A stretch of 64,000 bases of DNA, taken from contig CAVSHR010000004.1 in the NCBI GenBank assembly GCA_963727625.1, positions 96,001-160,000 on the forward strand, written 5' to 3'. This stretch comes from an uncultured delta proteobacterium (lineage in GTDB: Bacteria > Desulfobacterota > Binatia > UBA9968). The notes under the pieces are model-generated. The model had not been told where the DNA came from, ran no database searches, and saw nothing but the letters and a program-made list of their open reading frames with translations. This document shows positions 6,806 through 29,416 of this stretch, one piece after another; position 1 is the first letter of the stretch; the number at the start of each line of letters is the position of its first letter. The position numbers and the translations under genes are program-made.

Positions 6806-7588
6806 ATGTATCCCGTAATCTTTCAATTCGGTCCGATCACGATTTACAGCTTTGGCCTCTTCATGGCGCTGGCGGCGCTGTCGGCGGCCTGGGTGGTTCA
6901 CACCGAGCTCAAGCGCAGAGGGTTTGATCCCGAGGTCGCCTCAACGATGGTTTTCGCCGCGGCCATCGGCGGATTGGTCGGCGCGCGGCTTTTGTTCATT
7001 GTCGAAGAGTGGAGCAATTTTCTCGCCGCGCCCTTAAGCTTTATCTTCACGGGCGCCGGTTTTACCTGGTACGGCGGTTTTCTAGGCGGAACCGCCGCGG
7101 TTTCCTGGGTGGTTAGGAAAAACAAAATTCCTTGGCTCGTCGGCGCCGATATCGCCGCTCCTGCCTTGGCGATCGCCTACGGCGTGGGGCGCATCGGTTG
7201 CCACGTGGCCGGCGACGGCGATTGGGGAAAGGTCACCGACATGCCGTGGGGCGTTGCCTATACCAACGCGATCATCGGCTGGGTCAATCCGACAACCGGA
7301 ATTCCGTATCCGCCGGGTGTGCGCGTCCATCCCACGCCCCTTTACGAATTCGGCGAATCGGTGATCGTGTTCGCGGTTCTCTGGTCGATGCGGAAGCGGG
7401 GCTACGCTCCCGGAACGCTGGCGTGGCTCTACCTGATACTTGCCGGTTTTGCACGTTTTATCGTCGAGTTTTGGCGCATCAATCCGGCGCTGGGATGGGG
7501 GCTCAGCGAATCCCAATGGTTCAGTCTCGGGCTGATCGCGCTTGGGTTATTTCTCCTCGCCACGCGATCGGTCAGGGCGGCAACTTGA
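6806..7588 (+). CDS. lgt: Prolipoprotein diacylglyceryl transferase
   Basis: GARL, WYGG, GRIGC, HPTPLYE, RFIVEFWR motifs. Confidence 0.93.
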   Translation: MYPVIFQFGPITIYSFGLFMALAALSAAWVVHTELKRRGFDPEVASTMVFAAAIGGLVGARLLFIVEEWSNFLAAPLSFIFTGAGFTWYGGFLGGTAAVSWVVRKNKIPWLVGADIAAPALAIAYGVGRIGCHVAGDGDWGKVTDMPWGVAYTNAIIGWVNPTTGIPYPPGVRVHPTPLYEFGESVIVFAVLWSMRKRGYAPGTLAWLYLILAGFARFIVEFWRINPALGWGLSESQWFSLGLIALGLFLLATRSVRAAT

Positions 7589-7627
7589 AATCGGATCAAT
7601 TGCTAGGCACACTTCGGCGCAGTGTTG

Positions 7628-8026
7628 ATGAAACGATATATCGTCATATTCAGCTGTCTGTCGGTGTTTTACGCTGGAGCCGATTGGGCCTTTGTGGGTT
7701 GTCGTAATCTCGCCGGCGACGGCGCCTGGCATCATCACGCCGCAGAAACAGCTTCGCCGCGTCCACCAGACGCGCCGCCGTCCCACCATAACCATTCGGT
7801 TCCGGGCAAGATCCACTGCTTGAATTTTTTCGGCGAGTTTCTTCAGAGCGCACGGGTAACGGTCAATCCGGATCGCGGCTCGGTCAGCTACACCACCCGG
7901 GGCGGAATGCAGCTCAGTGGCAATCTTGCCGGCGCGATACCGCAACATTGGATCAATGGTCCGCCCGATTCAGGCACTGTAAAAACTTTTCCGCGCCATC
8001 TGCTTCTTTCTGTGCTCCGCATCTAA
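7628..8026 (+). CDS. Secreted His/Cys-containing upstream (leader-like) protein, copy 1
   Basis: Signal peptide ending WAF; HHH and HHNH; GKIHC; C-terminus GPP...RHLLLSVLRI; motifs shared with 12425-12832. Confidence 0.7.
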   Translation: MKRYIVIFSCLSVFYAGADWAFVGCRNLAGDGAWHHHAAETASPRPPDAPPSHHNHSVPGKIHCLNFFGEFLQSARVTVNPDRGSVSYTTRGGMQLSGNLAGAIPQHWINGPPDSGTVKTFPRHLLLSVLRI

Positions 8027-8051
8027 CGCCGTGCTGCCGGCGGTTTTTTTT
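8027..8051 (+). terminator. Intrinsic terminator-like hairpin abutting the leader ORF stop codon
   Basis: cgccg-tgctgc-cggcg followed by g and T8, starting immediately after TAA (8024-8026). Confidence 0.65.
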
Positions 8052-8145
8052 CACTGTCTCCCATAAAATTTGTTTAAGCGAGCAATCGGGAGCATTGGCG
8101 GTCCGACGTTTACAGGTCCGGCTCGCGATCTATCGAGGATCAACT

Positions 8146-8832
8146 ATGCACTTTCGACAATGGACGACGATTGTCGTCTCGATATTCTCATTGTTTAGCG
8201 CTGCGGTATCGGTAAGAGCCCACGGCGAAGGCAAGACACAGGGACCGGGCGAGTCGAGCGCCGAGCTACATCATCCCGCGGATTGGCGCTTCAGCATGCC
8301 GCGGGGCGATGCCGCCAAGGGGCGCCAGGTTTTTCAAAAATTCGAATGTTACGACTGCCACGAAGTGCGAGGGGAAAACTTTCCTTTCCCTACGGACATC
8401 AGCGCACCCGAGTTAAGTCAAATGGGATCCTTACACCCAATGGAGTTCTTTGCAGAGTCGGTGATCAATCCCGACGCCGTCGTTCCGAAACAGTATCGTG
8501 ACGCGGAGGGGAAGTCGCCCATGTCCCGCTATCACATCGACAAAATGACCCTGAGGGAATTTATCGATCTAACAACTTTTATCGCTTCCCTGAAGCCTCC
8601 TGCCGCCGCGAAGAGAGTGACCGGCCTCGGAAAAATCATCGCGATCACGACCTCGACTGGCGAGTTGGTACTCGACCACGAGCGTCTCCAAGGATTCATG
8701 GACGCGATGACCATGGGCTATAAGGTCAGCGCGCCGAAACTACTTGATGGCCTCAAACCCGGCGACAGGGTTTCGTTTACCCTCGACACCTCGCGCCGTG
8801 TCATCACTAAGATCGAAAAGGTAAAGCATTAA
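8146..8832 (+). CDS. Cytochrome c (SoxX-like class I) fused to CusF-type copper-binding domain
   Basis: ATG 8146 after GAGG; signal peptide; GDAAKGRQVF..CYDCH; ESVINP; C-terminal LDHERLQGFMDAMTMGY..LKPGDRVSF. Confidence 0.85.
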   Translation: MHFRQWTTIVVSIFSLFSAAVSVRAHGEGKTQGPGESSAELHHPADWRFSMPRGDAAKGRQVFQKFECYDCHEVRGENFPFPTDISAPELSQMGSLHPMEFFAESVINPDAVVPKQYRDAEGKSPMSRYHIDKMTLREFIDLTTFIASLKPPAAAKRVTGLGKIIAITTSTGELVLDHERLQGFMDAMTMGYKVSAPKLLDGLKPGDRVSFTLDTSRRVITKIEKVKH

Positions 8833-8843
8833 CGAGAGGATTT

Positions 8844-9314
8844 ATGCAATTCACAAAAAAGTTGTTACTGATGCTCTTTGGATTTTCGCTCTCCGGTTGT
8901 TCCTCGTATATTCCGGCCGCGCTAACGCCAAATCATCCGGCCCATCCTGACGCGGCGTTGGGACTGGCAGGACCGCGCTCGATGACGCTCGTCTACGCGG
9001 CGTCGGATTTACCGTCTCAAGCGAAGCCCGTGCGGTCCGTGGACGAGGAACGGACCGAACTCGATGCGCACAGCAGCGCGCAGGGTGCAACGCCAAGACT
9101 CGCGACCGGCGAAGGCAGCGTGATCGCGGTGGTGCCCGGGGCGAGCCAACTGGTGGTCGAGCATGGCGAGATCAAGGGCTTCATGGACGCCATGACTATG
9201 GGTTACCGCGTTGAGCCGAAGCAATTGCTCGATCTCATTAAAGCGGGTGACAAGGTGCGCTTCTCCATCGACGTGGAGAAAAAAACCATCGTCAAGCTGA
9301 AGAAAATTCCCTGA
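8844..9314 (+). CDS. CusF-family copper-binding lipoprotein
   Basis: Lipobox LSGC, HPAHP, VEHGEIKGFMDAMTMGY..IKAGDKVRF. Confidence 0.85.
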   Translation: MQFTKKLLLMLFGFSLSGCSSYIPAALTPNHPAHPDAALGLAGPRSMTLVYAASDLPSQAKPVRSVDEERTELDAHSSAQGATPRLATGEGSVIAVVPGASQLVVEHGEIKGFMDAMTMGYRVEPKQLLDLIKAGDKVRFSIDVEKKTIVKLKKIP

Positions 9315-9343
9315 CGGCGAAAGGTTTTCGCTGGAGCAATCCT

Positions 9344-10762
9344 ATGTCTTGGTTAAGAAACATTACCGGTTTGATTATTTATGCCACGTTCGTGAGCGGA
9401 TGTGCGTCGGTTGATTTATCGGCGGGCTTTCCCGATGTGCGGTCCAATGTTCAACAGCAACTGGGCATGTCGCTTTACTGGAATAACGGCACCAATCTCG
9501 ATCGGGAGGTGGATGAGAAGTTAAAAGCGATCTTGAGAGAAAAATTGACCGCGGAGCGGGCGGTGCAGGTCGCGCTGCTCAACAACCGCGAGTTGCAGGG
9601 CGTGTACGCGGACTTGGGCGTGGCGCAGGCCGATCTGGTGCAGGCCGGCTTATTAAAGAATCCGTTGTTCGATGCGGTTGTAACTTTTCCTGTTGTTGGC
9701 GGCCGGCCGGACTTCGAGCTCACCGCTGCCATGGGCTTTCTTGATGTTTTCTATCTTCCCCTGAGAAAGCGAGTGGCAGAGGGCCGATTCGCCGAAGCCA
9801 AGTCGCGGGTGACCGGAGCAGTGCTCGATCTTGCCGGAAAGGTGCGATCGGCATTTTTCGACCATCTCGCGAATGTGCAGATAATCGAACTTAGTCAGTC
9901 GATCGTCCAAGGTCTGGGGGCGTCGGTCGACATTACCCAAAGATTGCACGAGGCCGGCAACTCTTCCGATCTCGATCACGCCCGTGAAAGACTCCTCTTG
10001 GAGGTTGGGAAGCTGCAGCTCCGCAGGGCCGAGATCCTGAGCCGGCAAAGCCGGGAACAACTGAATGTATTGATGGGACTTTGGGGCGACGAAACTGAAT
10101 GGCAGAGCGATGGGCGATTGCCCGATATTTCTAAAGACGAAATTTCCTTGCAGGAATTCGAACGGATGGCGGTCGAGCGAAGTTTTAATCTCGCTGAGGG
10201 ACGGCAAAGAATTATCGCTGCAGGCGAGCAACTCGGACTCAATCGTGCAACCGCCTTGATTCCTGATCTGGATGCCGGTGCGCGGGGAGAGCGCGGCGAC
10301 GGAGCTTGGGCCGTCGGGCCGGTGCTCCAATTTCCTATTCCGGTATTCGATCAGGGCCAGGCTCGAACCGCCCGTGCCGCGGCGGAGCTACGCCGCGCCG
10401 AGCAGGAATTTTACGCATTGGCCGTGCGTGTGCGGGCGACAGCCAGGATGGTGGCCGATCGCTTAATCGGTGCCCGCGATCGTGTGCTCTATTATCGAGA
10501 CGTGGTGTTACCCTTACAGCAGCAGGTAGTCGATGAGACGCAATTGAATTACAACGCGATGCAGCTCGGCCCGATCGATTGGCTGCGCGCGCGTGAACAA
10601 CAGATCGGAACGGCTGCAAGCTACGTCGAAGCGTTGCGCGACTATTGGCTAGCGCATAGCGACTACCAGCAGTTGTTGATCGGCCGCTTGCCGCAACAGA
10701 GCGCGACGGTGACGACGCCAGTGACGCGGGTTACGGCTGCCGCCGTTGACGTGAACCACTGA
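9344..10762 (+). CDS. TolC-family outer membrane lipoprotein (copper-resistance-associated type)
   Basis: Lipobox VSGC, AVQVALLNN..LQ..LGVAQADLVQAGLLKNP, IPVFDQGQ, YNAMQ. Confidence 0.9.
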   Translation: MSWLRNITGLIIYATFVSGCASVDLSAGFPDVRSNVQQQLGMSLYWNNGTNLDREVDEKLKAILREKLTAERAVQVALLNNRELQGVYADLGVAQADLVQAGLLKNPLFDAVVTFPVVGGRPDFELTAAMGFLDVFYLPLRKRVAEGRFAEAKSRVTGAVLDLAGKVRSAFFDHLANVQIIELSQSIVQGLGASVDITQRLHEAGNSSDLDHARERLLLEVGKLQLRRAEILSRQSREQLNVLMGLWGDETEWQSDGRLPDISKDEISLQEFERMAVERSFNLAEGRQRIIAAGEQLGLNRATALIPDLDAGARGERGDGAWAVGPVLQFPIPVFDQGQARTARAAAELRRAEQEFYALAVRVRATARMVADRLIGARDRVLYYRDVVLPLQQQVVDETQLNYNAMQLGPIDWLRAREQQIGTAASYVEALRDYWLAHSDYQQLLIGRLPQQSATVTTPVTRVTAAAVDVNH

Positions 10763-10779
10763 CGAGGAGAATTGATGAG

Positions 10780-12192
10780 ATGAAGAACAAACTTTCGCGT
10801 CGCCAGATGCTTGGCCTCGGCATCGCCGGTCTCGCTGGTACCGTTGTATTGCCGAAGGGTCACGCCGAAGCGCTAGCCGGAAACGAATACGCGCCGGCTA
10901 ATAATTCACTGAACGAACGGCGCGCTCGCTGGGAAAAAAGTTACAGCGGTGGCAAAACAGACGTAAAACCGTTGCGGCCCGGTTCGGCGGAAACGGATTA
11001 TCAACCGATCGTCGTTCCCAACGGCGGCACGCTGCAGTTCAAGATCATCGACGGCGTGAAAGTCTTTCACCTGATCGCCGAAGAGGTAAACCATGCCTTC
11101 GATGCCGGATTGCGCGCCAGATGCTGGGGTTTTAATGGCCGGGTCAATGCAACGGTGTTGGAGGCGGTGGAGGGTGAGCGCGTGCGGATTTACGTGACCA
11201 ATCGCTTGCCGGTTTCGACCTCCGTCCATTGGCATGGCATCTATCTGCCCAACGGCATGGACGGGGTCGGCGGTTTGACCCAGCCCTATATCAAGCCGGG
11301 CGAAACGGTGAAATACGAATGGACGCTGCGCCAGCACGGCACACTGATGTACCATTCCCATCACGATGAGATGACGCAGATGGGCATGGGCATGATCGGC
11401 ATGTTCATCGTCCACCCGAGAAAACCGGCTCCCGAGTATCGCGTCGACCGGGATTTTGCTCTGCTCCTGAGCGAGTGGGTCATCGAGGCTGGCACGGCGC
11501 GGCCCAACACGCTTAAAATGAACGATGCCAACGTGCTGACGATCAACGGCAAGGTGTTTCCGTCGACGGCGGCGCTGGTCTGCAAGACCGGCGACAGGGT
11601 GCGGCTCCGAGTCGGCAACCTGAGCGCCATGAGCCATCACCCCTTGCACATCCACGGCTATCATTTTCGCATCACCGCCACCGACGGCGAAGATATTCCC
11701 TTGAGCGCGCAGTGGCCCGAGGTGACGGCGCTGATCGGTGTGGGCCAAACGCGCAATCTCGAATTCATCGCGGACGCGCCCGGCGACTGGGCGATCCACT
11801 GCCACATGACGCACCATGTGATGAACCAGATGGGGCACCAGTTTCCCAATTTGGTCGGCATGAACGCCGATGGTCTGGAAGAAAAATTGCGTCCGCTCTT
11901 GCCGGCCTACATGACCATGGGGAACACGGGCATGGATATGGGCAAAATGACGGAGGTGATGCCGTATCCCCGCAATACCATATCGATGAAGGGGGCCACA
12001 GGTCCGTTCGGCGATTACATTTCCATGGGTGGGATGATGACAGTGATCAAAGTGCGTGACCGTTTGAAAAGTTACGACGAGGATCCGGGCTGGTACCAAC
12101 ATCCGCCGGGAACTCTGGCGCTCAAAGCTACTGAGGCGGATCTGGCGCGTGACGGAATTGCGCTTTTCACCGGAGCGGCGGGTTCCCTATAG
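10780..12192 (+). CDS. Tat-exported two-domain multicopper oxidase
   Basis: SRRQML Tat motif; HWHG, YHSH, HPLHIHG, HCHMTHHVMNQM; Met-rich tail; DPGWYQHPPGT. Confidence 0.93.
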   Translation: MKNKLSRRQMLGLGIAGLAGTVVLPKGHAEALAGNEYAPANNSLNERRARWEKSYSGGKTDVKPLRPGSAETDYQPIVVPNGGTLQFKIIDGVKVFHLIAEEVNHAFDAGLRARCWGFNGRVNATVLEAVEGERVRIYVTNRLPVSTSVHWHGIYLPNGMDGVGGLTQPYIKPGETVKYEWTLRQHGTLMYHSHHDEMTQMGMGMIGMFIVHPRKPAPEYRVDRDFALLLSEWVIEAGTARPNTLKMNDANVLTINGKVFPSTAALVCKTGDRVRLRVGNLSAMSHHPLHIHGYHFRITATDGEDIPLSAQWPEVTALIGVGQTRNLEFIADAPGDWAIHCHMTHHVMNQMGHQFPNLVGMNADGLEEKLRPLLPAYMTMGNTGMDMGKMTEVMPYPRNTISMKGATGPFGDYISMGGMMTVIKVRDRLKSYDEDPGWYQHPPGTLALKATEADLARDGIALFTGAAGSL

Positions 12193-12708
12193 CTAATCGG
12201 AATCAAGGGCACGTGCAACTCTATCATCGTCGGTGGCGCTGAAGCTAATTTTCTTGGAATTGAAAATTTAGATGCTTGGCGTTGTCAATCTTGAGAAGGA
12301 AGACGCAAGGAGATCCGGTGACTGTCTAGCATTATCCTGGCCTTCTGACCGTGGCGGGTATCTTGCTTACTCCATTTGTTATCAATGAGCGCGCCTAGCA
12401 TGACAGTTCGATGTCTAAAATCCTGTGGATCGGTTTGCTTGGCTAGTGTTACTCACCTATTCAAGCATAGCATGGGCCTTTGGCGGCTGTCGCGAGGACG
12501 GTGAGGAGCTTGCTAGCGAGCAATTGGCCAGCGGCGATTTCGCAAACGCGAGTCCGATCAACCTTGTTGCGCGTTCTGTTGATGAACCGGTCGGCAGGGT
12601 GCATTGCGTTGCAACTTATTACGCGTTTGACGCGATCGCACAATATTCTTCGATTGGGTTTTTGAAACAGCCCCTCAGCGGTATCCAGTTAACGTCTTTC
12701 ATTTCAAA
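11943..12708 (+). repeat. Donor copy of ~770-bp diverged duplication (partner 24461-25233)
   Basis: Colinear identity from the MCO 3' end through the intergenic region and the 5' two-thirds of the leader ORF, ending at tttcaaa. Confidence 0.92.
12352..12367 (+). promoter_or_regulatory. Putative sigma54 (-24/-12) promoter
   Basis: TGGCgggtatcTTGCT has exact GG-N10-GC spacing; both boxes are conserved in the duplicate at 24869-24884. Confidence 0.6.
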
Positions 12709-12832
12709 CAAATCCACATCAGCGGGTGGAGTTGAAATGTTCGGTGGACATTCCCCGCGTGGTTGGCTTGCTAGGTCTTCGCCGCCGAGTCTTCTATCTC
12801 GTCATCTTCTGCTCGCCGTTTGGCTAATCTGA
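12425..12832 (+). CDS. Secreted upstream (leader-like) protein, copy 2
   Basis: YSSIAWAFGGCR, PVGRVHC, C-terminus SPP..RHLLLAVWLI; start codon uncertain (GTG). Confidence 0.65.
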   Translation: MDRFAWLVLLTYSSIAWAFGGCREDGEELASEQLASGDFANASPINLVARSVDEPVGRVHCVATYYAFDAIAQYSSIGFLKQPLSGIQLTSFISNKSTSAGGVEMFGGHSPRGWLARSSPPSLLSRHLLLAVWLI

Positions 12833-12850
12833 CGCTCCTCCTGTCTTTTG

Positions 12851-12875
12851 CGATGCCTGGTTTACCGAGGCATCG
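12851..12875 (+). promoter_or_regulatory. Stem-loop downstream of leader ORF copy 2
   Basis: cgatgcct-ggtttaccg-aggcatcg, perfect 8-bp stem; no immediate U-tract. Confidence 0.5.
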
Positions 12876-12991
12876 GTCGGTAATACATTTTCGTGGGATT
12901 GAAGCAGTTTTCTTTTCTTCGTGAAAAATTTATGAAGCCGATTCCCATACAAACCGTCCGGCGAGGTCTGACAATAAGGAGCAAAAAGAGC

Positions 12992-13402
12992 ATGAAACCA
13001 CTAAAATTATTTCTCATGGCATTTCTCCTAGTAGGTTTCGTGGGATGGGGAGAAAGTTACGCAGTAGGTGCCTCGGATGCGACGCAAACGGTTTCAGGTG
13101 GAGGAGTGACGGTGGCCGTGACCTACATGAACCCGCGCAGCCATGAGAGTCCCCAGTTCCAAGTGACGCTTAACACCCACTCGGTTACTTTAGACAGCTA
13201 TGATCTTAAGACCATAGCGTTACTGCGCGATGGCGCAGGAAAAACTTACGCACCGATAAAGTTCGAGAACAAAGGCGCTGGCCATCACCGCCAGGTCGCA
13301 TTGACGTTTCCAAAAATATCCGAAGGAGCGAAGCGGGTCGAAGTCATTATTAAAGACGTCGCAGGAGTCAAGGAAAGAACATTTCGCTGGAACATTCAGT
13401 AA
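12992..13402 (+). CDS. Secreted hypothetical protein with THS and GHHR motifs (probable metal-binding)
   Basis: Signal peptide, LNTHSVTLDSYDL, GAGHHR; AAGGAG upstream. Confidence 0.75.
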   Translation: MKPLKLFLMAFLLVGFVGWGESYAVGASDATQTVSGGGVTVAVTYMNPRSHESPQFQVTLNTHSVTLDSYDLKTIALLRDGAGKTYAPIKFENKGAGHHRQVALTFPKISEGAKRVEVIIKDVAGVKERTFRWNIQ

Positions 13403-13449
13403 ATTAGATACCGGATTGGGGGCGAACGCGATGAATTCGGAGGTCGGTC

Positions 13450-13602
13450 ATGGGAGAGTTCTTACAAAGCAATTGGTTTTGGATCGTCCTGGTGGTTTTT
13501 TTTATCTGGATGCACGCCTCGGGGTATGGCTGCGGAGGGCATGGCGGGCATAGAAACCATGGTGATCGAATCCAGAAGCCTGATGAGGATCAGCCTCGGT
13601 AG
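13450..13602 (+). CDS. Small His-rich membrane protein (DUF2933-like), 50 aa, not in the ORF track
   Basis: Read manually: MGEFLQSNWFWIVLVVFFIWMHASGYGCGGHGGHRNHGDRIQKPDEDQPR; GGAGG RBS at 13439. Confidence 0.7.
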   Translation: MGEFLQSNWFWIVLVVFFIWMHASGYGCGGHGGHRNHGDRIQKPDEDQPR

Positions 13603-15231: not shown

Positions 15232-15495
15232 ATGGATGGATTGTGGGGAGGTTTATATGACTGCGGTTACGGATCGCACCCGACGATGTGGGGTGCTTGA
15301 GGATTTGCCATGATGCTGATGATGATTCTGTTTTGGGGTCTGATTATTGTTGCGGTTGTCTTGGGCGTTCGCTGGTTCGTCGGACAGGGAAAGGAGTCGC
15401 CATCGGACTCGCCCCTCGATATCCTGCGCCAACGCTACGCGCGCGGCGAGATGAATAAGGAAGAGTTCGAATCAAGAAAGCAAGATCTAAGCTAG
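15232..15495 (+). pseudogene. SHOCT-domain membrane protein interrupted by in-frame TGA (15298-15300); 61-aa product possible from 15310
   Basis: MDGLWGG...MWGA*GFAMMLMMILFWG...PLDILRQRYARGEMNKEEFE all in one frame. Confidence 0.7.
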
Positions 15496-20032: not shown

Positions 20033-20168
20033 GAAGGCAAAGTTGGAAATTTGCGGAGGTAGCAATAGGTTATTACCCCATGACGGATACCTGCTGCGTA
20101 TCAAATGGGGCAATGTCGAAGGAACTGAAGTAACGATACTTCGGTAACGATTTGGGAGGTGAGAATTG

Positions 20169-22592
20169 ATGACCGATCCAATTTGCGGGATGGAAGTTGA
20201 GCCGAATAGCGCTGCGGGAAAGCACCAGCACAACGGGCAGGTCTATTATTTTTGCAGCGTGCATTGCCTGGAACGATTCAAGTCGGACCCAGCGAAGTTT
20301 TTACAACCTCGTTCGGAGGAGAGCGGGAAAGGGACTGCAACAGAAAAAGCCAAGCAAAGCACGACGACTGTGTATGTCTGTCCGATGGACCCTGAGGTTC
20401 GCGAAAACAAACCCGGGCCTTGCCCCAAGTGCGGCATGGCGCTAGAGCCCGAGGAGCCCGCGGCGCCAGCGGTGAAAACCGAATATGTTTGCCCGATGCA
20501 TCCGGAGATCGTCAGGCCGGAGCCCGGTTCCTGTCCGATCTGCGGTATGGCATTGGAGCCGCGAACCGTCACGCTTGAAGAGGAAGCGAATCCAGAACTC
20601 GTTGATATGACACGAAGGTTTTGGATTAGCGCGGTTTTGAGCGCGCCGCTTCTTTTGTTTGCACTTACGGAATTTTTTCCCGGCCAACCGGTCCATCGCT
20701 GGTTTTCGCCGCATGCTCTCAACTGGTTTCAATTAACCCTCGCCACCCCGGTCGTCCTTTGGGGGGGCTGGCCGTTCTTCCAGCGCGGCTGGGCATCGAT
20801 CGTCAATCGCAGCCTCAACATGTTCACGCTGATCGCGATCGGCGTCGGCACTGCCTATATCTACAGCATTGTCGCCGCGCTGTTTCCCGAACTGTTCCCC
20901 GATTCATTTCGCGGGCCGGACGGAGAAGTGGCAGTTTATTTTGACGCGGCGGCGGTTATCACGACCTTGGTGCTGCTGGGTCAGGTACTGGAGCTCCGCG
21001 CGCGTAGCCGAACCAGCAGCGCTATCAAGGCGCTCCTGGGGCTTGCGCCCAAGACCGCGCGCCTGCTGCGCGACGACGGCGGCGAAGAAGACATTCCGCT
21101 GGAGCGCGTTCAGCCCGGGGATCGCCTTCGGGTCCGCCCCGGGGAAAAAATTCCCGTCGACGGTATCGTTATAGACGGTAGTACTTCGGTCGACGAGTCG
21201 ATGATCAGCGGGGAGCCAATTCCAGTAGAGAAGGTTAAAGACAACCGGGTTACGGGAGGCACGGTCAACGGGACCGGCAGTTTTACCATGCGAGCTGATC
21301 GGGTGGGCAGCGAGACGCTGCTCGCGCAAATCGTCCGGATGGTCAGCGAAGCGCAGCGCAGCCGCGCGCCGATCCAAAAGTTGGCGGATATCGTTGCCGG
21401 CTACTTCGTGCCCGTCGTTGTCTTGGTGGCGATTGTGACATTTGTGATCTGGGGATGGGTAGGGCCGGCGCCGCGCCTGGCTCATGCTCTGGTCAATGCG
21501 GTGGCGGTATTGATCATCGCATGCCCTTGCGCATTGGGCTTGGCGACACCCATGTCGATCATGGTTGGCACCGGACGAGGCGCGAGTGCCGGGGTTTTGA
21601 TCAAGAATGCCGAAGCGCTGGAGGTGATGGAAAAGATCGACACGCTTGTGGTCGATAAGACCGGGACACTCACCGAGGGCAAGCCCCGCCTCGTTTCCGT
21701 GATGCCGGCGAGCGGTAAAAACGAAGACGACATCCTGCGCTTCGCGGCGAGCCTGGAACTGGGGAGCGAGCATCCGCTCGCCGCCGCCATTGTCGATGGC
21801 GCTCGTGAGCGGGACATCAAGCTTACTGAGGCAACGGACTTTCGCTCTATTACGGGAAAAGGCGTGCTCGGTACCGTAGACGGAAAAGCAGTGGGGCTGG
21901 GCAATCAAAAGCTCCTGGAAGAAATGGGTGTCCAACCTACGGAATTGTCGAATCGCGCTGAGGAGCTGCGCCGCGACGGACAGACCGTGATGTCTGTCGT
22001 TGTAGGGCGCGAGCTCGTAGGACTGGTCGGCGTGGCCGATCCGATCAAGAAATCGACTCCCGAGGCGATCCAACTGTTGCACGAGGAAGGGATTAAAATC
22101 GTCATGCTCACCGGCGACAATCGTACGACGGCAGAGGCCGTGGCCGGCAAGCTCGGGATCGATGAGATTCAAGCGGAGGTCTTGCCCGAGCAAAAGGGCG
22201 AGGTGGTCAAGCGTCTCCAGGCCGAAGGGAGAATGGTCGCGATGGCCGGCGACGGAATCAATGACGCTCCCGCTCTGGCTCAAGCCCATGTGGGTATAGC
22301 GATGGGAACGGGCACCGACGTGGCGATGGAAAGCGCGGGGATCACCCTCGTCAAAGGCGACCTCAGAGGGATTGCCAACGCCCGCCGGTTGAGCCATGCG
22401 ACGATGCGGAACATACGCCAGAACCTGTTTTTTGCTTTCGTCTACAATAGCTTGGGAATTCCAATCGCGGCCGGGGTGCTCTATCCCTTTTGGGGTCTGC
22501 TGCTCAGCCCGATCATAGCGAGCGCGGCGATGACGTTCAGCTCGGTTTCGGTTATCACCAACGCGCTGCGACTCAACAAAATCAAGCTGTAG
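20169..22592 (+). CDS. copA: Cu(I)-translocating P1B-type ATPase with YHS and heavy-metal-binding domains
   Basis: DPICGM/YFCS..C, two CPM...CPxCGM repeats, [34 protein letters not shown]. Confidence 0.95.
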
Positions 22593-22787
22593 GAGTGCAG
22601 GTGTCAAGCGAGATAATTTCGAATTTGGGCCGGCGGGCGGCCACGAGAGTGATAAGGGACGGCACTTTTTCTATTGGCGCAAAGTGTTAGTCTTTGAGTA
22701 AGAAAAAAATGCAAATTAAATTGGAATTCGTTGCGGGTTGACGGTCGGAAAACCGTTTCTGATGACGAAATAAAGGGAGCTACGAAA

Positions 22788-23087
22788 ATGAAACGAAAGA
22801 CGCCTGCGATTGCTGCAATCCTATTTCTTGTCGCGCTCGCATCCGAAGTTTCTGCGCAAATGGGCGGGGGCATGATGGGGCCGCGTTCCGGTATGGGGCA
22901 GGGAGGGATGGGGGGCGGTCAAGGCTATGGCCCCGGCTACGGCCCAAGCCCGGAGGGAGGGCAATCCTCTCCGAATCTCACCCCTGAAGAACAAAAAGCC
23001 CGGGCCAAAGCTTTCGTTGAGGATTATCTGCGGCGTAATCTGCCGGAGTATGAGCTGCAAAAGAAAGACACCAAGAAAAGTAAGTGA
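22788..23087 (+). CDS. Small secreted Gly/Met-rich protein
   Basis: Signal peptide, QMGGGMMGP..., C-terminal PNLTPEEQKARAKAFVEDYLRRNLPEYEL. Confidence 0.8.
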   Translation: MKRKTPAIAAILFLVALASEVSAQMGGGMMGPRSGMGQGGMGGGQGYGPGYGPSPEGGQSSPNLTPEEQKARAKAFVEDYLRRNLPEYELQKKDTKKSK

Positions 23088-23210: not shown

Positions 23211-23729
23211 ATGAAAAAGAAAGCGTCGGCACTAGTTGCCATATTGTTTGTTGTCGGCCTGGCAACCTCTGCGTTAGCTCAGCCATCGGCGCCCGGCGAT
23301 CAGGGTCCCCGTCAGGGACCTGGGTATGGTATGGGGCGAGGCCAAGGACCTGGTTATGGCCCGGGATATGGTTACGGAATGGGCCCGGGGATGATGGGAC
23401 CGGGCTACGGTTATGGACCGAACATGGGGCCGTGGATGATGGGCCCGGGTTGGCACGGAGGCTATGGAATGGGGCCGGGCATGATGGGCCCGGGATATGG
23501 ATACGGAATGGGACCATGGATGATGGGACCGGGCTACGGTTATGGACCGAACATGGGGCCGTGGATGATGGGCCCGGGATATGGTTATGCACCCGGCGAA
23601 GGCCAGGCCTATCCCGACCTAACGCCTGAAGAGCGGGAAGCAAAGACAAAGGCTTTCGTAGAAGAATACCTGAAGCGTCACTTGCCAGGTTATACTCTAG
23701 AAAAAAAGCAGCCGACGAAGAAGAAATAA
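23211..23729 (+). CDS. Secreted Gly/Pro/Met/Tyr repeat protein, paralog of 22788-23087
   Basis: AAGGAG RBS, signal peptide, GPGMMGPGYGYG repeats, C-terminal PDLTPEEREAKTKAFVEEYLKRHLPGYTL. Confidence 0.85.
   Translation: MKKKASALVAILFVVGLATSALAQPSAPGDQGPRQGPGYGMGRGQGPGYGPGYGYGMGPGMMGPGYGYGPNMGPWMMGPGWHGGYGMGPGMMGPGYGYGMGPWMMGPGYGYGPNMGPWMMGPGYGYAPGEGQAYPDLTPEEREAKTKAFVEEYLKRHLPGYTLEKKQPTKKK
23358..23578 (+). repeat. Intragenic ~92-bp direct repeat, offset 129 bp
   Basis: 23358-23449 and 23487-23578 are nearly identical. Confidence 0.85.
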
Positions 23730-23856
23730 GTTATTCCGTGAAAACGGAGGAAATCATTCCTTGCTTGTAGTTTTTATTTCAGGAGGGAAGAGATTTCCTC
23801 CGTCTGATTCGATTGGACCCGTACGGGTCGGGGCTCATGGTATCGAGGAGACAAAA

Positions 23857-24153
23857 ATGAAAGCTCTGTCAATGGTTGGAGAAATGCTGATTCAATGGCA
23901 GCCAGGCTATCAAGGGCCCTGGGGTTGGCATTACAACATGATGGGAGGTGGATGGGGGATATTCATGTTTATCTTTATGTTGATATTTTTGGGCCTGGTG
24001 ATCACCGGAATTGTTATTCTCGTGCGCTACTTGTCACCACACGCCAGGTCGAAGCCGTCTGAAGGTGCGTTGGAGATTCTCAAACGGCGCTACGCGCGAG
24101 GAGAAATTCAAAAAGCCGAATTCGAGGAAAAGAGGAAGGATCTAGAATCGTAG
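23857..24153 (+). CDS. SHOCT-domain membrane protein
   Basis: GAGGAG RBS; WGWHYNMMGGGWG, TM, ALEILKRRYARGEIQKAEFEEKRKDL. Confidence 0.85.
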   Translation: MKALSMVGEMLIQWQPGYQGPWGWHYNMMGGGWGIFMFIFMLIFLGLVITGIVILVRYLSPHARSKPSEGALEILKRRYARGEIQKAEFEEKRKDLES

Positions 24154-24425: not shown

Positions 24426-24460
24426 GCTTCGGTGTGCAGATTGGGCTTTGGCGAGAACAG

Positions 24461-24709
24461 CAAGGTGACCGAGGCGATGCCGATGCCGAAGAACACCGTC
24501 GCCATGAAGGGGCTGACCGGCCAGTTCGGCGATTACATTTCCATGAGTGGTATGATGACCGTCGCCAAAGTACGCGACCGTTTGAAAAGTTACGACGAGG
24601 ATCCGGGCTGGTACCAACATCCGCCGGGAACCCTGGCGCTCAAAGCTACTGAGGCGGATCTGCGCGTGACGGAATTGCGGTTTTTAACGGAGCGGCCGGT
24701 TCCCAATAG
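24461..24709 (+). pseudogene. Multicopper oxidase C-terminal remnant
   Basis: KVTEAMPMPKNTVAMKG..FGDYISM..; no N-terminal domains; frameshift near 24662. Confidence 0.85.
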
Positions 24710-24868
24710 CCAATCGGGATCAAGGCCACCTGCAACTATATCAATGCCGGTTGCGCTGAAGCTAATTTTCTTGGAATCAAAAATTTACCTGCTTGGCGTT
24801 CTCAATTTTAAGAAGTAAGATGCAAGGAGATCAAGTGATTGCCTAGCATGATCCCGGTCCTCTGACCT

Positions 24869-24884
24869 TGGCGGGAATTTTGCT
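24869..24884 (+). promoter_or_regulatory. Putative sigma54 promoter (duplicated copy)
   Basis: TGGCgggaattTTGCT, GG-N10-GC. Confidence 0.55.
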
Positions 24885-24961
24885 TGCTACGTTTGCTACC
24901 TATATATATAGTGAGCGCGCTTTAGCGTGACAGTTCGATATCAAAAATCCATTGGAAAGGT

Positions 24962-25240
24962 TTGCTTGGCGGTGTTATTCACCTTTCAAGCGTAGCCTGG
25001 GCCTTTGATGACTGTCGCCGGGACAGTGAGGAGCATGCTAGCGAGCAATGGTTCCGCGGCGATTTCGTAAGCCCGAGGCCGCTCAGCCTTGTTGCGCGTT
25101 CTGCTGATGAACCAGTCGGCAGGGTGCATTGCGTTGCAACTGATTACGCGTTTGACGCGATCGCACAATCTTCTTCGATTGCGTTTTTGAAACAGGCTTT
25201 CAGCGGTGTCCAGTTAACGTCTTTCGTTTCAAATGTTTAA
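24962..25240 (+). pseudogene. Truncated leader-like ORF, copy 3
   Basis: VAWAFDDCR..PVGRVHC; two 1-nt deletions in the signal region relative to copy 2; lacks the RHLLL tail. Confidence 0.75.
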
Positions 25241-25985: not shown

Positions 25986-26483
25986 ATGAAGTGGCTGGCG
26001 GCGATAGGGCTGTTTGTTTTTCTTCTGTTAGCTTTTTGGTTTGGACCAGCGTCTTCTCGCAGGGAGCCCGCGCCAATGCAGCCTATTGCCTTCAATCATA
26101 AAATTCATGCGGGCGATTACCAAATTGCCTGTGAGTACTGCCATATTTATGCCAGGAAGTCCGCGGTAGCGGGTATTCCTTCGGCTCAACGCTGCATGGG
26201 CTGCCACAAAATCACTGCCGCGGGTAATCCAGAAGTGCAAAAACTGCGGGGGTACTGGGAGCGCAGGGTGCCCCTCCAGTGGAGCAAAGTTACCTCCATG
26301 CCTGATTATGTTTACTTCGAGCACTGGCCCCATGTCCGGTCTAACATCGCCTGTCAGACCTGCCATGGTCCTGTTGAAACCATGGAGCAGGTAAAACGGG
26401 TCAGGGCTCTAGACATGAGCGAATGTGTTTCGTGCCATCGCGAGCAACAGGCGAGTATCGATTGCGTTATCTGCCACCGTTGA
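25986..26483 (+). CDS. actA: Membrane-anchored pentaheme cytochrome c, ACIII subunit A
   Basis: QPIAFNHKIH; five CxxCH (CEYCH, CMGCH, CQTCH, CVSCH, CVICH). Confidence 0.88.
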   Translation: MKWLAAIGLFVFLLLAFWFGPASSRREPAPMQPIAFNHKIHAGDYQIACEYCHIYARKSAVAGIPSAQRCMGCHKITAAGNPEVQKLRGYWERRVPLQWSKVTSMPDYVYFEHWPHVRSNIACQTCHGPVETMEQVKRVRALDMSECVSCHREQQASIDCVICHR

Positions 26484-26494
26484 AAACATTTTCT

Positions 26495-29416
26495 ATGGAG
26501 ATCAAGCGGAGAGATTTTTTAAAACTACTCGGAGCAGGGGGAGCCACAACTGCGATTTCCGGCTGTTCCCCTGACTTACCGGAAAAACTCATTCCATATC
26601 TTATTCCAGCGGAGGGGATCGTGCCGGGGCAAGCGACTTGGTACGCCACGGTCTGCAGGGAATGTCCAGCAGGATGTGGAATGCTCGTTAAGACCATGGA
26701 AGGACGGGCAATCAAGGTCGAAGGAAACCCGCTCCATCCGGTAAATCAAGGAAAGCTCTGTGCGCGGGGACAGGCGAGTGTTCAGGGACTATATAATCCA
26801 GACCGGATAACCCGACCCGGCAAAAGAGGAACGGACGGATCGCTTCAACCGATCGCATGGAAAGACGCGGAAGCGGTTCTTGCCGGTCAAATTTCGGAGC
26901 TTAAGGGATCTGGAAAACGCATCGCTTTTGTTACTCCGCTTCTAACCGGAAGCCAGGATCACCTTGTGGAATTATGGCTCAAGGCCGTAGGGGGCGGGCC
27001 GCGTCTTCGTTATGAAGCGGTTAGTTATGAGTCATTGCGGGAGGCGAATCGTCTCGCATTCGGTGCGGCCGAGATTCCTTATTACGACCTCGAGCAGGCC
27101 CGCTTGATGCTCTCCTTTGGCGCGGACTTTCTAGAGACTTGGCTCTCGCCTGTGGAGTTCGCCCGGCAATTCGCCTCCATGCGTACTTACCGGGACGCTC
27201 GGCTTGCTCGTTTCGCATATATCGGACCTCGACTTTCGCTTACCGCGGCTAACAGCGACGAGTGGATTGCCATTCGACCTGGAACGGAGGTTTTTCTTGC
27301 CCTGAGCATGGTTCAGGTTATTCTCGCCGAGGGTTTGGCGATAGCTCTGCCGCAGTCAGAAACCCAAGAGCTTCACGGCTACGTGGCTGATTTTACTCCT
27401 GAGCGGATGGCTGAAAAATGCGGAATCTCGTCCGACAAAATTCGCGTTCTTGCTCGGGCTTTCGCCCGTGAGAGGCCGAGCTTGGCCATTGCCGATGGCA
27501 AGAGTTCCAACGGGACCGATACCTGCCTTGCGGTTAACCTCCTAAATTACATTGTTGGCAACGTCGGGAGTACAGTCCGCTTCGGAGCCAACGGAGCTGC
27601 CGGCCAAGTTTCATCGTACGAAGATTTTCTTAAGCTCATCGACGAGATTGAACGCGGGGAAATTGCCGTTTTACTTTTAGCCGGCGTCAATCCTCTGTTC
27701 AGCCTGCCGGATGCGAAGCGTTTCCAGGAGGCGCTAAAAAAGGTTTCTTTGATTGCAAGCTTTTCGAGTTTTCCCGATGAAATCGCCGCGGTGTCACACT
27801 TAGTTCTGCCTGACCATACATTTCTGGAAAGTTGGGGCGACTACGAGCCTTGGGAAGGCGTCCGCGGTCTGCAGCAGCCCGCGATGATGCCGCTATACGA
27901 TACCAAAAATCTTGGCGATGTGCTGCTTTCAGTGGCGAGTCGGATGGGGTTGCAAAAAACTCTGCCATGGGAGAATTTTTATAGTTATTTGAGAGACGAG
28001 TGGCAAAAGATTTACCGGGATCAAAACGCGCAAGGGGATTTTGAAACCTTTTGGACTCGGACGCTTCAGCAGGGAGGGGTTTTTCAATCTCCACCCTCAC
28101 GCGCCGTCCGATTGAATACCGAGGCGATTAAGCGCCGATATGAACCATCGGCTTTTGCGGGTCGTGAAGATGATTTGACGTTGATCCCCTATCCTTCGGC
28201 GAACTTTTATGATGGCCGCATGGCCAATCGCCCCTGGTTGCAGCAACTCCCGGACGCTCTGACGCAAATCGCCTGGGATAGCTGGGTGGATATAAATCCT
28301 CGAGACGCCGAACGTCTCGGCGTGAACGAGGCGGACATGCTTGTTCTTCAGTCTCCTTCGGGCCGGATCCAGGTGCCGGCCCATGTAACAGGCGGTGTTC
28401 GCGCTGGTGCCGTAGCCGTTCCTGTTGGCCAGGGACATACCGAGTTTGGCCGCTACGCCGCGGGTCGAGGAGCCAATCCGATTGCGCTTTTGCAAAGCGC
28501 GCCTGAGAAAGCTTCGGGCGGGCTGGTTTGGCTCGGCACTCGGGTAATTGTGACGCGAAGCGGAGAACGCTATCCTTTAGCCGCCACGATTGGAAGTGAT
28601 CGCCCCAACGAGCGGAGCATCACGCAGACAATATCCTTAGGCGCTCTGCAACGGCAATCCGAGCCAAAGCCCAAACCCGAGCTGCTGGCTATGTATCCCG
28701 ACCACCCGCATCCGAAACACCGGTGGGGGATGGTCATCGATCTGAACGCCTGTATCGGCTGTGGAGCTTGCATGGCGGCATGCAGTGCCGAAAATAATAT
28801 TGCGATCGTGGAAAAGGATCAGGTGGGTAAAGGACGCGAGATGTCGTGGATACGGATCGAGCGATTCGACGAAGGGGAAACTGACCGTCCGGATCAACAC
28901 TTCATTCCGATGCTCTGTCAGCACTGTGACAATGCCCCATGTGAGCCGGTCTGTCCCGTTTACGCGACCTATCACAATCCGGAAGGGCTTAACGTCCAGG
29001 TGTACAACCGCTGTGTGGGCACGCGGTATTGCTCCAACAATTGTCCTTATAAGGTACGGCGTTTCAATTGGTCCACGGCGAAATGGCCGGAGCCGCTGAA
29101 CCTGCAACTCAATCCGGATGTGACCGTTCGAGAGATGGGGGTCATGGAAAAGTGCAGCTTCTGCGTCCAGCGAATCCGAGTTGGAGAGTTGGCGGCTAAA
29201 GAAGCCGATCGGCAGGTCCGTGACGGAGAGATCGTTCCGGCGTGTGCTCAGACCTGCCCGACGCGCGCGATAGTTTTCGGGGATCTAGATGATCGCGAGA
29301 GTGAGGTGGCAAAACTCGCCAAGGATCCGAGAGGCTATCATGTGCTGGAGGAACTTAATACCAAGCCTGCCGTGACCTACTTAAAGAAAATAAAGCCCGG
29401 GCCGCTGGAAGGATAG
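26495..29416 (+). CDS. actB: ACIII subunit B: molybdopterin-oxidoreductase-like domain fused to Fe-S domain
   Basis: Tat KRRDFLK; CRECPAGC...KLCARG; CIGCGACMAAC, CQHCDNAPCEPVC, CVGTRYCSNNC, CSFC..CAQTC. Confidence 0.9.
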   Translation: MEIKRRDFLKLLGAGGATTAISGCSPDLPEKLIPYLIPAEGIVPGQATWYATVCRECPAGCGMLVKTMEGRAIKVEGNPLHPVNQGKLCARGQASVQGLYNPDRITRPGKRGTDGSLQPIAWKDAEAVLAGQISELKGSGKRIAFVTPLLTGSQDHLVELWLKAVGGGPRLRYEAVSYESLREANRLAFGAAEIPYYDLEQARLMLSFGADFLETWLSPVEFARQFASMRTYRDARLARFAYIGPRLSLTAANSDEWIAIRPGTEVFLALSMVQVILAEGLAIALPQSETQELHGYVADFTPERMAEKCGISSDKIRVLARAFARERPSLAIADGKSSNGTDTCLAVNLLNYIVGNVGSTVRFGANGAAGQVSSYEDFLKLIDEIERGEIAVLLLAGVNPLFSLPDAKRFQEALKKVSLIASFSSFPDEIAAVSHLVLPDHTFLESWGDYEPWEGVRGLQQPAMMPLYDTKNLGDVLLSVASRMGLQKTLPWENFYSYLRDEWQKIYRDQNAQGDFETFWTRTLQQGGVFQSPPSRAVRLNTEAIKRRYEPSAFAGREDDLTLIPYPSANFYDGRMANRPWLQQLPDALTQIAWDSWVDINPRDAERLGVNEADMLVLQSPSGRIQVPAHVTGGVRAGAVAVPVGQGHTEFGRYAAGRGANPIALLQSAPEKASGGLVWLGTRVIVTRSGERYPLAATIGSDRPNERSITQTISLGALQRQSEPKPKPELLAMYPDHPHPKHRWGMVIDLNACIGCGACMAACSAENNIAIVEKDQVGKGREMSWIRIERFDEGETDRPDQHFIPMLCQHCDNAPCEPVCPVYATYHNPEGLNVQVYNRCVGTRYCSNNCPYKVRRFNWSTAKWPEPLNLQLNPDVTVREMGVMEKCSFCVQRIRVGELAAKEADRQVRDGEIVPACAQTCPTRAIVFGDLDDRESEVAKLAKDPRGYHVLEELNTKPAVTYLKKIKPGPLEG

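Follow-up and report, generated by a model that had tools for sequence, protein, structure and literature searches.

In a 64,000-nucleotide (nt) stretch of DNA from an uncultured delta proteobacterium (GenBank assembly GCA_963727625.1, contig CAVSHR010000004.1, positions 96,001 to 160,000; hereafter the window), we analysed a small open reading frame (ORF), copy 1, together with its relative, copy 2. Copy 1 clearly heads an operon for a cytochrome c-CusF fusion, a CusF protein, an outer-membrane efflux protein (OEP) and a multicopper oxidase. Judged from sequence, it appears to belong to a lineage-restricted and hitherto unannotated branch of copper-responsive proteins resembling leader peptides rather than to a categorically new mechanism class. 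By analogy with the leader proteins CutF and CruR, we consider it quite possible, if short of probable, that copy 1 acts in cis as a nascent-chain copper sensor, exported during its translation, and that its ribosome would occlude a terminator lying at the stop codon. The two ORFs and the elements of copy 1 are as follows.

7628..8026, + strand: copy 1 (famA), a 132-residue exported His/Cys-rich leader-like protein with an ATG start and the stop TAA at 8024-8026
7628..7699, + strand: putative signal peptide or hydrophobic N-terminal segment, residues 1-24 (MKR, h-region and AGADWAFVG)
7700..7819, + strand: putative metal-sensing segment, with invariant Cys25, a His-rich stretch and invariant His63 and Cys64 (HC at 7814-7819)
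7955..7966, + strand: NGPP (N110-G111-P112-P113; xGPP in the family), a candidate ribosome pause motif suggested by spacing statistics
7994..8023, + strand: C-terminal tail RHLLLSVLRI of copy 1, recognised by its conservation and synonymous codon variation
8027..8051, + strand: intrinsic-terminator-like element, CGCCG (8027-8031), TGCTGC, CGGCG (8038-8042), G and T8 (8044-8051)
12425..12832, + strand: copy 2 (famB), a 135-residue paralog with a GTG start

A single pairwise BLASTP comparison aligned copy 1 and copy 2 with 34 identities over 132 residues (26%, E 3e-6), by which they are distant paralogs. An earlier note on this DNA, made from the letters alone, had paired the two ORFs by a hydrophobic N-terminus ending in WAFxGCR, a G(K/R)(I/V)HC motif, a Pro-Pro (PP) and an RHLLLxVxxI-stop tail, and each of these features was confirmed on both sequences, as were the 68 (copy 1) and 74 (copy 2) residues that follow HC. 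The cysteine pair, C25/C64 in copy 1 and C22/C61 in copy 2, has an index difference of 39 in both; the equal spacing described by the note therefore stands, with 38 rather than "exactly 39" residues lying between the cysteines. Across the family, the index difference runs from 35 to 45 with modes at 38 and 39, a narrow range and not a fixed C-x38-C. In copy 2, the PP lies 16-15 residues from the end and the tail reads RHLLLAVWLI. The ATG chosen for copy 1 agrees with the MKR start seen in all homologs, and the protein contains 9 His and 3 Cys.

The family holds up as a real one that is conserved at the protein level and has no annotation, as the note had supposed. A word-index search with copy 1 returned three homologs at 51-61% identity, and the same search with copy 2 returned no homolog. 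A five-sequence profile run against 1.84 billion representative proteins recovered 80 at E ≤ 1e-3, 29 of them also at E ≤ 1e-10, and none of the matches to Pfam or NCBIfam reached threshold; these representatives are mostly 125-135 amino acids (aa) long, and most of the matches listed extend to the last residue of the protein. In a whole-genome profile search, 28 of 61 relatives matched at E ≤ 1 (a tally that includes two unpublished genomes, G005 and G035, on which no further result depends). Strong full-length matches occurred only in the window's own genus and in one other genus of its family, and the window's genome holds only copies 1 and 2 and a partial copy 3 treated below.

Conservation is concentrated at the two ends of the protein, in the HC motif and in GPP. 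The alignment of 61 members shows no exception at C25 and H63, and A21, C64 and the last Ile are kept in at least 90%. The last ten residues form the best-conserved region (3.09 bits per position), which bears out the RHLLL-type tail emphasised in the note; the HC motif follows at 2.96 bits, the signal peptide at a mean of 2.33, xGPP at 2.31, the His-rich stretch at 1.31 and residues 73-109 at 1.03. A comparison of 24 copy-1-clade genes shows the tail's invariant Leu, Leu, Ser and Arg written with three to five codons apiece, and this synonymous variation indicates that selection acts on the tail peptide and not on the RNA. An AlphaFold2 (AF2) model built from the 61-sequence alignment was confident only for a helix at residues 2-33, where the predicted local distance difference test score (pLDDT) was 89-96; elsewhere the pLDDT was ~50, with a predicted template-modelling score (pTM) of 0.33, and the body outside the N-terminal helix is accordingly predicted to be disordered. 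The N-terminus of copy 1 reaches a maximum 15-aa Kyte-Doolittle hydrophobicity of 1.89, and its h-region contains an Asp. A lipoprotein assignment was considered and rejected: the lipobox is not conserved, and many members have N, D, E, K or I as the residue before C25.

The GC hairpin followed by T8, which the note had described as abutting the stop codon of copy 1, begins one base after the stop. It folds at -8.7 kcal/mol, and 13 of 200 shuffled sequences fold equally well. We scored its recurrence under two sets of criteria. Under the first (a perfect stem of ≥ 4 pairs, ≥ 3 of them G-C, closed by a 3-8-nt loop, and ≥ 5 T in 8), a site lies no more than 3 nt from the stop in 18 of 47 distinct family gene ends, a sample that includes broken copies, copy 2's clade and outgroups; the background, within 3 nt of the stop, is 29 of 4334 ORFs of at least 200 aa in the genome. 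Under the second, which relies on RNAfold (a minimum free energy ≤ -7 kcal/mol over 29 nt counted from the stop, first paired base no more than 5 nt away, at least 5 T in the 8 nt after the stem), 21 of 30 distinct copy-1-clade (famA) ends pass, versus 23 of the 4334 long genome ORFs (0.53%). When 20 ends were folded singly, 17 gave structures of -7.4 to -13.7 kcal/mol, and in 11 of these 17, bases of the stop codon itself take part in the stem. The hairpins have 4-8 pairs, their stems vary among homologs (UACCGC/GCGGUA, AGCCGC/GCGGCU, CAGCGC/GCGCUG), and the pairing register varies between sub-clades.

Stop-codon usage is also skewed in this clade. The famA genes end in UAG (22/30) or UAA (8/30) and never in UGA (0/30), which is the commonest stop among the genome's long ORFs (1725/4334); this avoidance may reflect the pairing of the stop within the stem or a requirement for release factor 1. 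A classical trp/his-type antiterminator was examined and rejected, since in the predicted fold of 7967-8052 the terminator hairpin stands alone; the RNA that encodes the tail is rich in pyrimidines and predicted to be unstructured. Copy 2 carries a terminator-like hairpin at 12862-12883, 29 nt downstream of the gene. Around it, at 12852-12883, two overlapping and mutually exclusive hairpins can be drawn (GATGCCT/AGGCATC and TTACCGA/TCGGTAA, the second followed by a T-rich run); they resemble an antiterminator/terminator pair and are not shared by the downstream sequences of four copy-2-type relatives.

The gene neighbourhood places copy 1 immediately ahead of copper genes, assigned by Pfam and synteny.

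6806..7588, + strand: lgt, prolipoprotein diacylglyceryl transferase (Pfam LGT, E 9e-52), 39 nt upstream of copy 1
8052..8145, + strand: spacer, with the Shine-Dalgarno (SD) sequence GAGGA at 8135-8139, local hairpins only and no promoter-like match
8146-8832, + strand: cytochrome c-CusF fusion
8844-9314, + strand: CusF-domain protein (CusF lipoprotein)
9344-10762, + strand: OEP
10780-12192, + strand: multicopper oxidase

In relatives, the recurring order is (CarboxypepD_reg-like)-lgt-family gene-cytochrome c-CusF-CusF protein-OEP-oxidase-second family gene-136-aa gene; one relative genome has two consecutive pairs of family gene and cytochrome c-CusF, and more distant members sit before an OEP-like gene. 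Among 31 complete family genes on metagenome contigs, the next same-strand homologous gene is cytochrome c-CusF in 27 and OEP in one, and the remaining three contigs end first, within about 180 nt. The positional bias expected of a leader gene is thus present, with a same-strand copper gene next in 28 of 31 metagenomic loci. The upstream neighbour is variable: lgt in many but not all relatives, and otherwise another cytochrome c or some other gene. It is the downstream copper genes, unlike lgt, that form the constant neighbour of the family gene. In the window, lgt is the probable source of transcription into the copy 1 ORF.

The note had placed each ORF first before a copper operon, which clearly holds for copy 1 only. 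Copy 2 lies after the multicopper oxidase and precedes an unannotated 136-aa exported protein, followed by a 50-aa His-rich ORF, an NfeD-like protein and a cytochrome c. Further along, a P-type ATPase with YHS and heavy-metal-binding domains occupies 20166-22592. The window contains no regulator gene of the OmpR, MerR, CsoR or ArsR type or of the sigma-70 family, the five families searched, and the closest sigma gene lies ~10 kb upstream of copy 1, beyond the window. In three relatives (L023/G003, L035/G014 and L036/G018), the copy-1 ortholog is broken: one carries an in-frame TAG, and the other two are split across frames. Those neighbours that could be identified appear whole (in L036, the genes from cytochrome c-CusF to oxidase; in L035, lgt), and the interruptions represent gene decay or assembly error.

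We compared the family with known exported sensors. CruR of Bordetella pertussis (Bp2923, DUF2946) is an upstream ORF whose nascent product senses copper via a CXXC motif and, by arresting at a RAPP motif in its C-terminal part, controls Rho-dependent termination; between CXXC and RAPP lie 45 residues (C93-P141, index difference 48), a spacing reported to be conserved across DUF2946 (PMC9426467). Like CruR, copy 1 is a small protein with an export signal (a hydrophobic N-terminus), stands first in a copper-related operon with same-strand copper genes following, and is separated from the next gene by a long spacer. The likeness extends to a Cys metal motif followed at a set distance by Pro-Pro: the index difference from the Cys of HC to the first Pro is 46, 47 or 48 in 32 of the 50 members scored, against 48 in CruR, and in copy 1 exactly 45 residues lie between C64 and N110, in line with the ~45-residue DUF2946 spacing. 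This spacing is not general, as copy 2 and its subgroup have Cys-to-Pro distances of 57-60, with 58 intervening residues in copy 2. As the note had recognised, the motifs themselves are others. A single His63-Cys64 with the distant Cys25 takes the place of CXXC, and xGPP that of RAPP, the NGPP of copy 1 (residues 110-113) being followed by 19 further residues; in 39 of the 51 members that have a PP, its first Pro lies 18-25 residues from the end. The candidate read-out and the genes concerned also differ: CruR works through Rho-dependent termination on an uptake transporter that copper shuts off, whereas the copy-1 clade has an intrinsic hairpin and U-run at the stop, and efflux and oxidase genes follow copy 1.

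The analogy to a CruR-type sensor drawn in the note holds for architecture and spacing; the note overlooked CutF, a copper-sensing leader found upstream of a multicopper oxidase. CutF of the Rhodobacter capsulatus cutFOG operon, the other characterised regulator of the DUF2946 family, is a co-translationally exported copper sensor (PMC9973294, also bioRxiv 10.1101/2022.11.11.516240; 10.1101/2025.02.05.636593) that stalls at a C-terminal proline motif and unmasks the ribosome-binding site (RBS) of the next gene; 5,334 "CutF-like" proteins have been listed, often upstream of OEP, CusA, CusB and CusF genes (PMC9973294). Copy 1 shares with CutF a putative Sec signal peptide, a presumed periplasm-facing copper motif, a proline motif ~45 residues later, the position upstream of a multicopper oxidase and, with the CutF-like set, neighbours that include OEP and CusF. 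Its size (132 aa) and its 119-nt spacer lie within the limits of the operational CutF-like filter of Ozturk et al., which however asks for a PP within the last 15 residues, and the PP of copy 1 lies 21-20 from the end. CutF further differs in melting an RBS-hiding stem-loop across a short spacer, and no conserved hydrophobic tail is described for it; the string "Nitrospir" does not appear in the main text of the CutF paper (PMC9973294). A CutF-like positional analog was noticed on the Nitrobacter hamburgensis plasmid NC_007960.1 (L074, 2543-3019). This 158-aa hypothetical protein has a hydrophobic N-terminal segment, a His-rich stretch, CCGLxC and a C-terminal APP..YRPPIS, matches DUF2946 at E 0.073 (below the cut-off), has 245 relatives at E ≤ 1e-5, and is encoded after a metal-sensitive repressor gene and before a TolC-oxidase pair homologous to that of the window.

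Searches with profile hidden Markov models (HMMs) point to relatives of the family without assigning it to any of them. Neither window protein matched a Pfam family at E ≤ 10. Across the 61 members, sub-threshold matches were obtained to LpqS_Mycobact (NF052429; 18 members, counted at E ≤ 1, best E 1.2e-5), DUF2946 (PF11162; six members, best E 0.0012), CopL_fam (NF033807; four members, best E 0.011) and the CzcI family (one member, E 0.01). The gathering cut-off of DUF2946 is 23.7 bits and the curated cut-off of LpqS_Mycobact is 35 bits. The mycobacterial LpqS thus provides the best HMM link; the alignment of one member (P0005) pairs residues 13-128 with positions 10-119 of the 126 in the profile at 23.3 bits, below 35, and the window's own two proteins are not matched by the model. 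The phylum and downstream genes of LpqS differ from those of the present family. In mycobacteria, lpqS is the first gene of an operon controlled by a copper repressor, and it is needed for complementation together with the downstream cysK2 (PMC13712938). The DUF2946 model, which the note had wished to see compared, matched six of the 61 members below threshold and none at its cut-off; it gave no match at E ≤ 1 in the window's genome and only three marginal ones in 301 genomes of the phylum, within open frames of 636 and 247 aa and in one 156-aa frame with an internal stop. Look-alikes in the ESM Atlas, a "Copper resistance protein" cluster and a CzcI cluster (0.93), serve as leads only. The family proposed in the note as new is hence unannotated, yet not without relatives.

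Among these, CopL of Xanthomonas and Stenotrophomonas is reported to be needed for copper induction and to act only in cis, and CzcI of Cupriavidus is without a proline motif (PMC9973294). Both resemble the present proteins as small Cys/His-rich products encoded right before copA or czcCBA; they differ in giving only the sub-threshold matches above, and a terminator at the stop is not described for them in the passages covered. The Sec-monitoring arrest peptides SecM, MifM and VemP precede a gene for a protein-export component; the genes downstream of copy 1 are copper genes and not Sec or YidC components. Taken together, the family is probably akin in its workings, and distantly related, to the CutF/CruR/CopL/LpqS group, and it is not a demonstrated member of DUF2946.

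The mechanism that we favour would join pyrBI-type coupling attenuation to a CruR/CutF-type sensor. In pyrBI, a closely trailing ribosome physically blocks formation of the terminator hairpin, and a ribosome footprint reaches about 12-15 nt past the P site. In copy 1, the conserved hydrophobic signal sequence would bring the ribosome-nascent chain complex to the Sec translocon. When the ribosome stands at xGPP and then at the tail, the Cys25/His-rich/His63-Cys64 segment would lie at or past the periplasmic mouth of the channel; the spacing itself is observed, and its meaning is read by analogy with CruR and CutF. Copper binding could then alter the speed of the ribosome through GPP and the tail, or its dwell time at the stop. 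A ribosome on the last codons or the stop would cover the 5' arm of the hairpin, allowing polymerase to read through into the copper genes, and a lagging, paused or absent ribosome would let the hairpin and U-run form and end transcription. For a resistance operon, copper would be expected to raise read-through, by a CruR-like relief of an upstream pause or a TnaC-like hold at the stop; prolonged stalling at GPP as in CutF would turn the resistance genes off, and the sign of the copper effect is not readable from the sequence. In TnaC, likewise, the position of the ribosome at or near the stop of the leader peptide decides whether transcription continues (PMC9973294, discussion). TnaC and pyrBI differ from copy 1 in being cytoplasmic leaders that respond to tryptophan or to UTP-dependent polymerase pausing, neither exported nor sensing a periplasmic metal. 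As for the tail, it might arrest the ribosome or modulate release, or else mark the released peptide for degradation or recognition. Arrest, metal sensing and attenuation by copy 1 are what we infer from these features. Three further observations favour this mechanism: no competing antiterminator fold is predicted, none of the five searched regulator families occurs in the window, and 8052-8145 shows no promoter-like site.

A number of observations weigh against terminator occlusion by the ribosome. Nine of the 30 famA ends fail the RNAfold criteria and several T-runs are interrupted; the stems are short, and in only 9 of the 20 ends folded singly do no more than 5 of 200 shuffles fold as well. 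Since the homologs are orthologous genes at syntenic positions, they do not count as independent cases. RNAalifold, run on a MAFFT alignment of 25 spacers, found no common structure, which we attribute to the different hairpin registers of the sub-clades. Copy 2's clade and the outgroups keep the tail and have no hairpin at the stop; since the tail, unlike the terminator, occurs throughout the family, its role is not terminator-dependent and must be more general. Tail plus adjacent hairpin, proposed in the note as the mechanism of the family, is therefore maintained for the copy-1 clade and not beyond it. PP is missing in 10 of the 61 members. An hhalign comparison with one CutF-like positional analog family, that of the alphaproteobacterial Nitrobacter plasmid ORF, gave a probability of only 0.8% and thus lends no support to homology with DUF2946. 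The regulator search, for its part, covered five families only, and the spacer holds conserved AT-rich blocks and a second hairpin, which could be an independent promoter or a 5' untranslated region.

The spacer deserves attention on this last point. In homologs, 77-119 nt, mostly 96-107 nt, separate the stop from the next gene's ATG, which has an SD before it. The second hairpin is found ~45-75 nt after the stop, with an AAT-TGAAAT-like block between it and the T-run; the stems of this hairpin differ yet stay paired (TTGTCG/CGACAA, TTGCCG/CGGCAA, GACCGA/TCGGTC), and these compensating substitutions indicate that it behaves as an RNA element rather than as a protein operator. An independent promoter within 8052-8145, named in the note as an observation that would speak against attenuation, was not seen there as a sigma-70-like site, with the lineage's own promoter types not known to us. 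Sigma-54-like and extracytoplasmic-function (ECF)-like motifs picked out by eye in the spacer were unconvincing and were discarded. A search of 7000-13500 against Rfam found nothing except a chance-level PYLIS match.

The alternative to be taken most seriously is that copy 1 is a stable exported copper binder, whether a disordered sponge, a chaperone or a membrane-tethered protein, encoded at the end of an lgt unit that closes with an ordinary terminator and followed by a separate promoter in the ~100-nt spacer. We hold this to be possible but rather unlikely. By default, a terminator that directly follows a gene would be read in this way, and 29 of the 4334 long ORFs have one within 3 nt of the stop; copy 2 and the outgroups are without a stop-codon terminator, and the conserved AT-rich blocks and second hairpin would suit a promoter region. 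The His/Cys-rich composition and predicted disorder of copy 1 are in keeping with a metal-binding protein, disorder being also typical of periplasmic metal sponges such as SilE/PcoE. However, the mature body is the least conserved part of the protein and the signal peptide and last ten residues the most, which is unusual for a mature binder. The constant neighbour, moreover, is the downstream gene and not lgt, neither a promoter-like site in the spacer nor a regulator of the searched families nearby was seen, and architecture and spacing match those of leader peptides proven to act in cis.

The remaining explanations appear less probable. It is improbable that copy 1 is a translational leader in the manner of CutF, with the ribosome on the ORF controlling the RBS of cytochrome c-CusF through the spacer RNA and the hairpin and T-run being incidental or RNA-stabilising. 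This would equal a demonstrated mechanism, and small SD-overlapping hairpins can be drawn (GAUCU/GGAUC around 8127-8141, and in several homologs), but the ~70-110 nt from stop to SD are too many for a ribosome at the stop to melt an SD hairpin directly, the spacer fold of the window is no stabler than shuffles (z -0.30), and the spacers yield no consensus structure. Equally hard to credit is a membrane-anchored protein with an uncleaved signal anchor that works in trans, either regulating in response to metal or serving as an anti-sigma-like partner, a role of the kind proposed for CzcI. The AF2 helix at 2-33 does pass the predicted cleavage region, and the single CzcI match and the CzcI look-alike cluster point in this direction; the cytoplasmic part would be merely Met-Lys-Arg, though, the conserved end is the far C-terminus, and the window contains no sigma factor and no partner regulator of the five searched families. 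That copy 1 is a chance ORF and not a gene, as its lack of database annotation and Pfam match might suggest, is practically inconceivable given 80 representative homologs of constant length, a peptide conserved through synonymous codon changes and conserved synteny.

Copper-sensing leader peptides such as CruR, CutF and CopL are a recent discovery and come mostly from Pseudomonadota. If the nascent-chain sensor reading of copy 1 is true, the principle would extend to another, largely uncultured soil lineage, with different sensing and tail motifs and with an intrinsic terminator at the stop as a third read-out beside Rho-dependent termination and RBS unmasking. A bolder proposal, which we regard as doubtful at present, is that the family forms a lineage-specific branch of exported nascent-chain metal sensors read out by a Rho-independent terminator that is built onto their own stop and often takes it in, with HLLLSVxRI-stop as a new arrest or termination-stall sequence distinct from RAPP, RAGP or polyproline. 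If so, it would be the first case of a periplasmic sensor of the arrest-peptide type in which the ribosome, by direct occlusion, provides the link to intrinsic termination. The conserved ten-residue tail is a candidate for a new ribosome-interacting or release-modulating peptide. The published filter for PP within 15 residues and the Pfam model miss whole clades.

The third family copy counted in the note did not survive closer comparison. A 777-nt segmental duplicate links 11942-12708 with 24460-25233 at 84% identity and reaches from the 3' end of the multicopper oxidase gene across the intergenic region into copy 2, of which it takes in the first ~95 codons. The second duplicate copy is cut off on both sides, including a truncated multicopper-oxidase 3' end, and carries the following feature.

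24926..25240, + strand: copy 3, a truncated pseudogene remnant

Copy 3 is without start, signal peptide or tail and differs from copy 2 by 32 nonsynonymous and 5 synonymous codon changes. By this comparison, it is a decaying remnant of copy 2 and lends no independent support to the family.

Other small proteins of the window also come in related pairs. Adjoining the copper ATPase, 22731-23087 and 23211-23729 encode exported Gly/Met/Pro/Tyr-rich repeat proteins (MGPGYGYG-type); both end with TPEE..KAFVE.YL..LP.Y, have no Pfam match and may be methionine-rich metal binders. The small membrane proteins at 15310-15495 and 23761-24153 have the common ending ...L..RYARGE(M/I).K.EFE..K.DL, and one of the two recurs near copy-2 orthologs in a relative. 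From 25986 to 30742 and beyond, multihaem CxxCH proteins, a molybdopterin/4Fe-4S-like large subunit and a polytopic membrane subunit form a cluster that by eye resembles an alternative complex III-like cluster.

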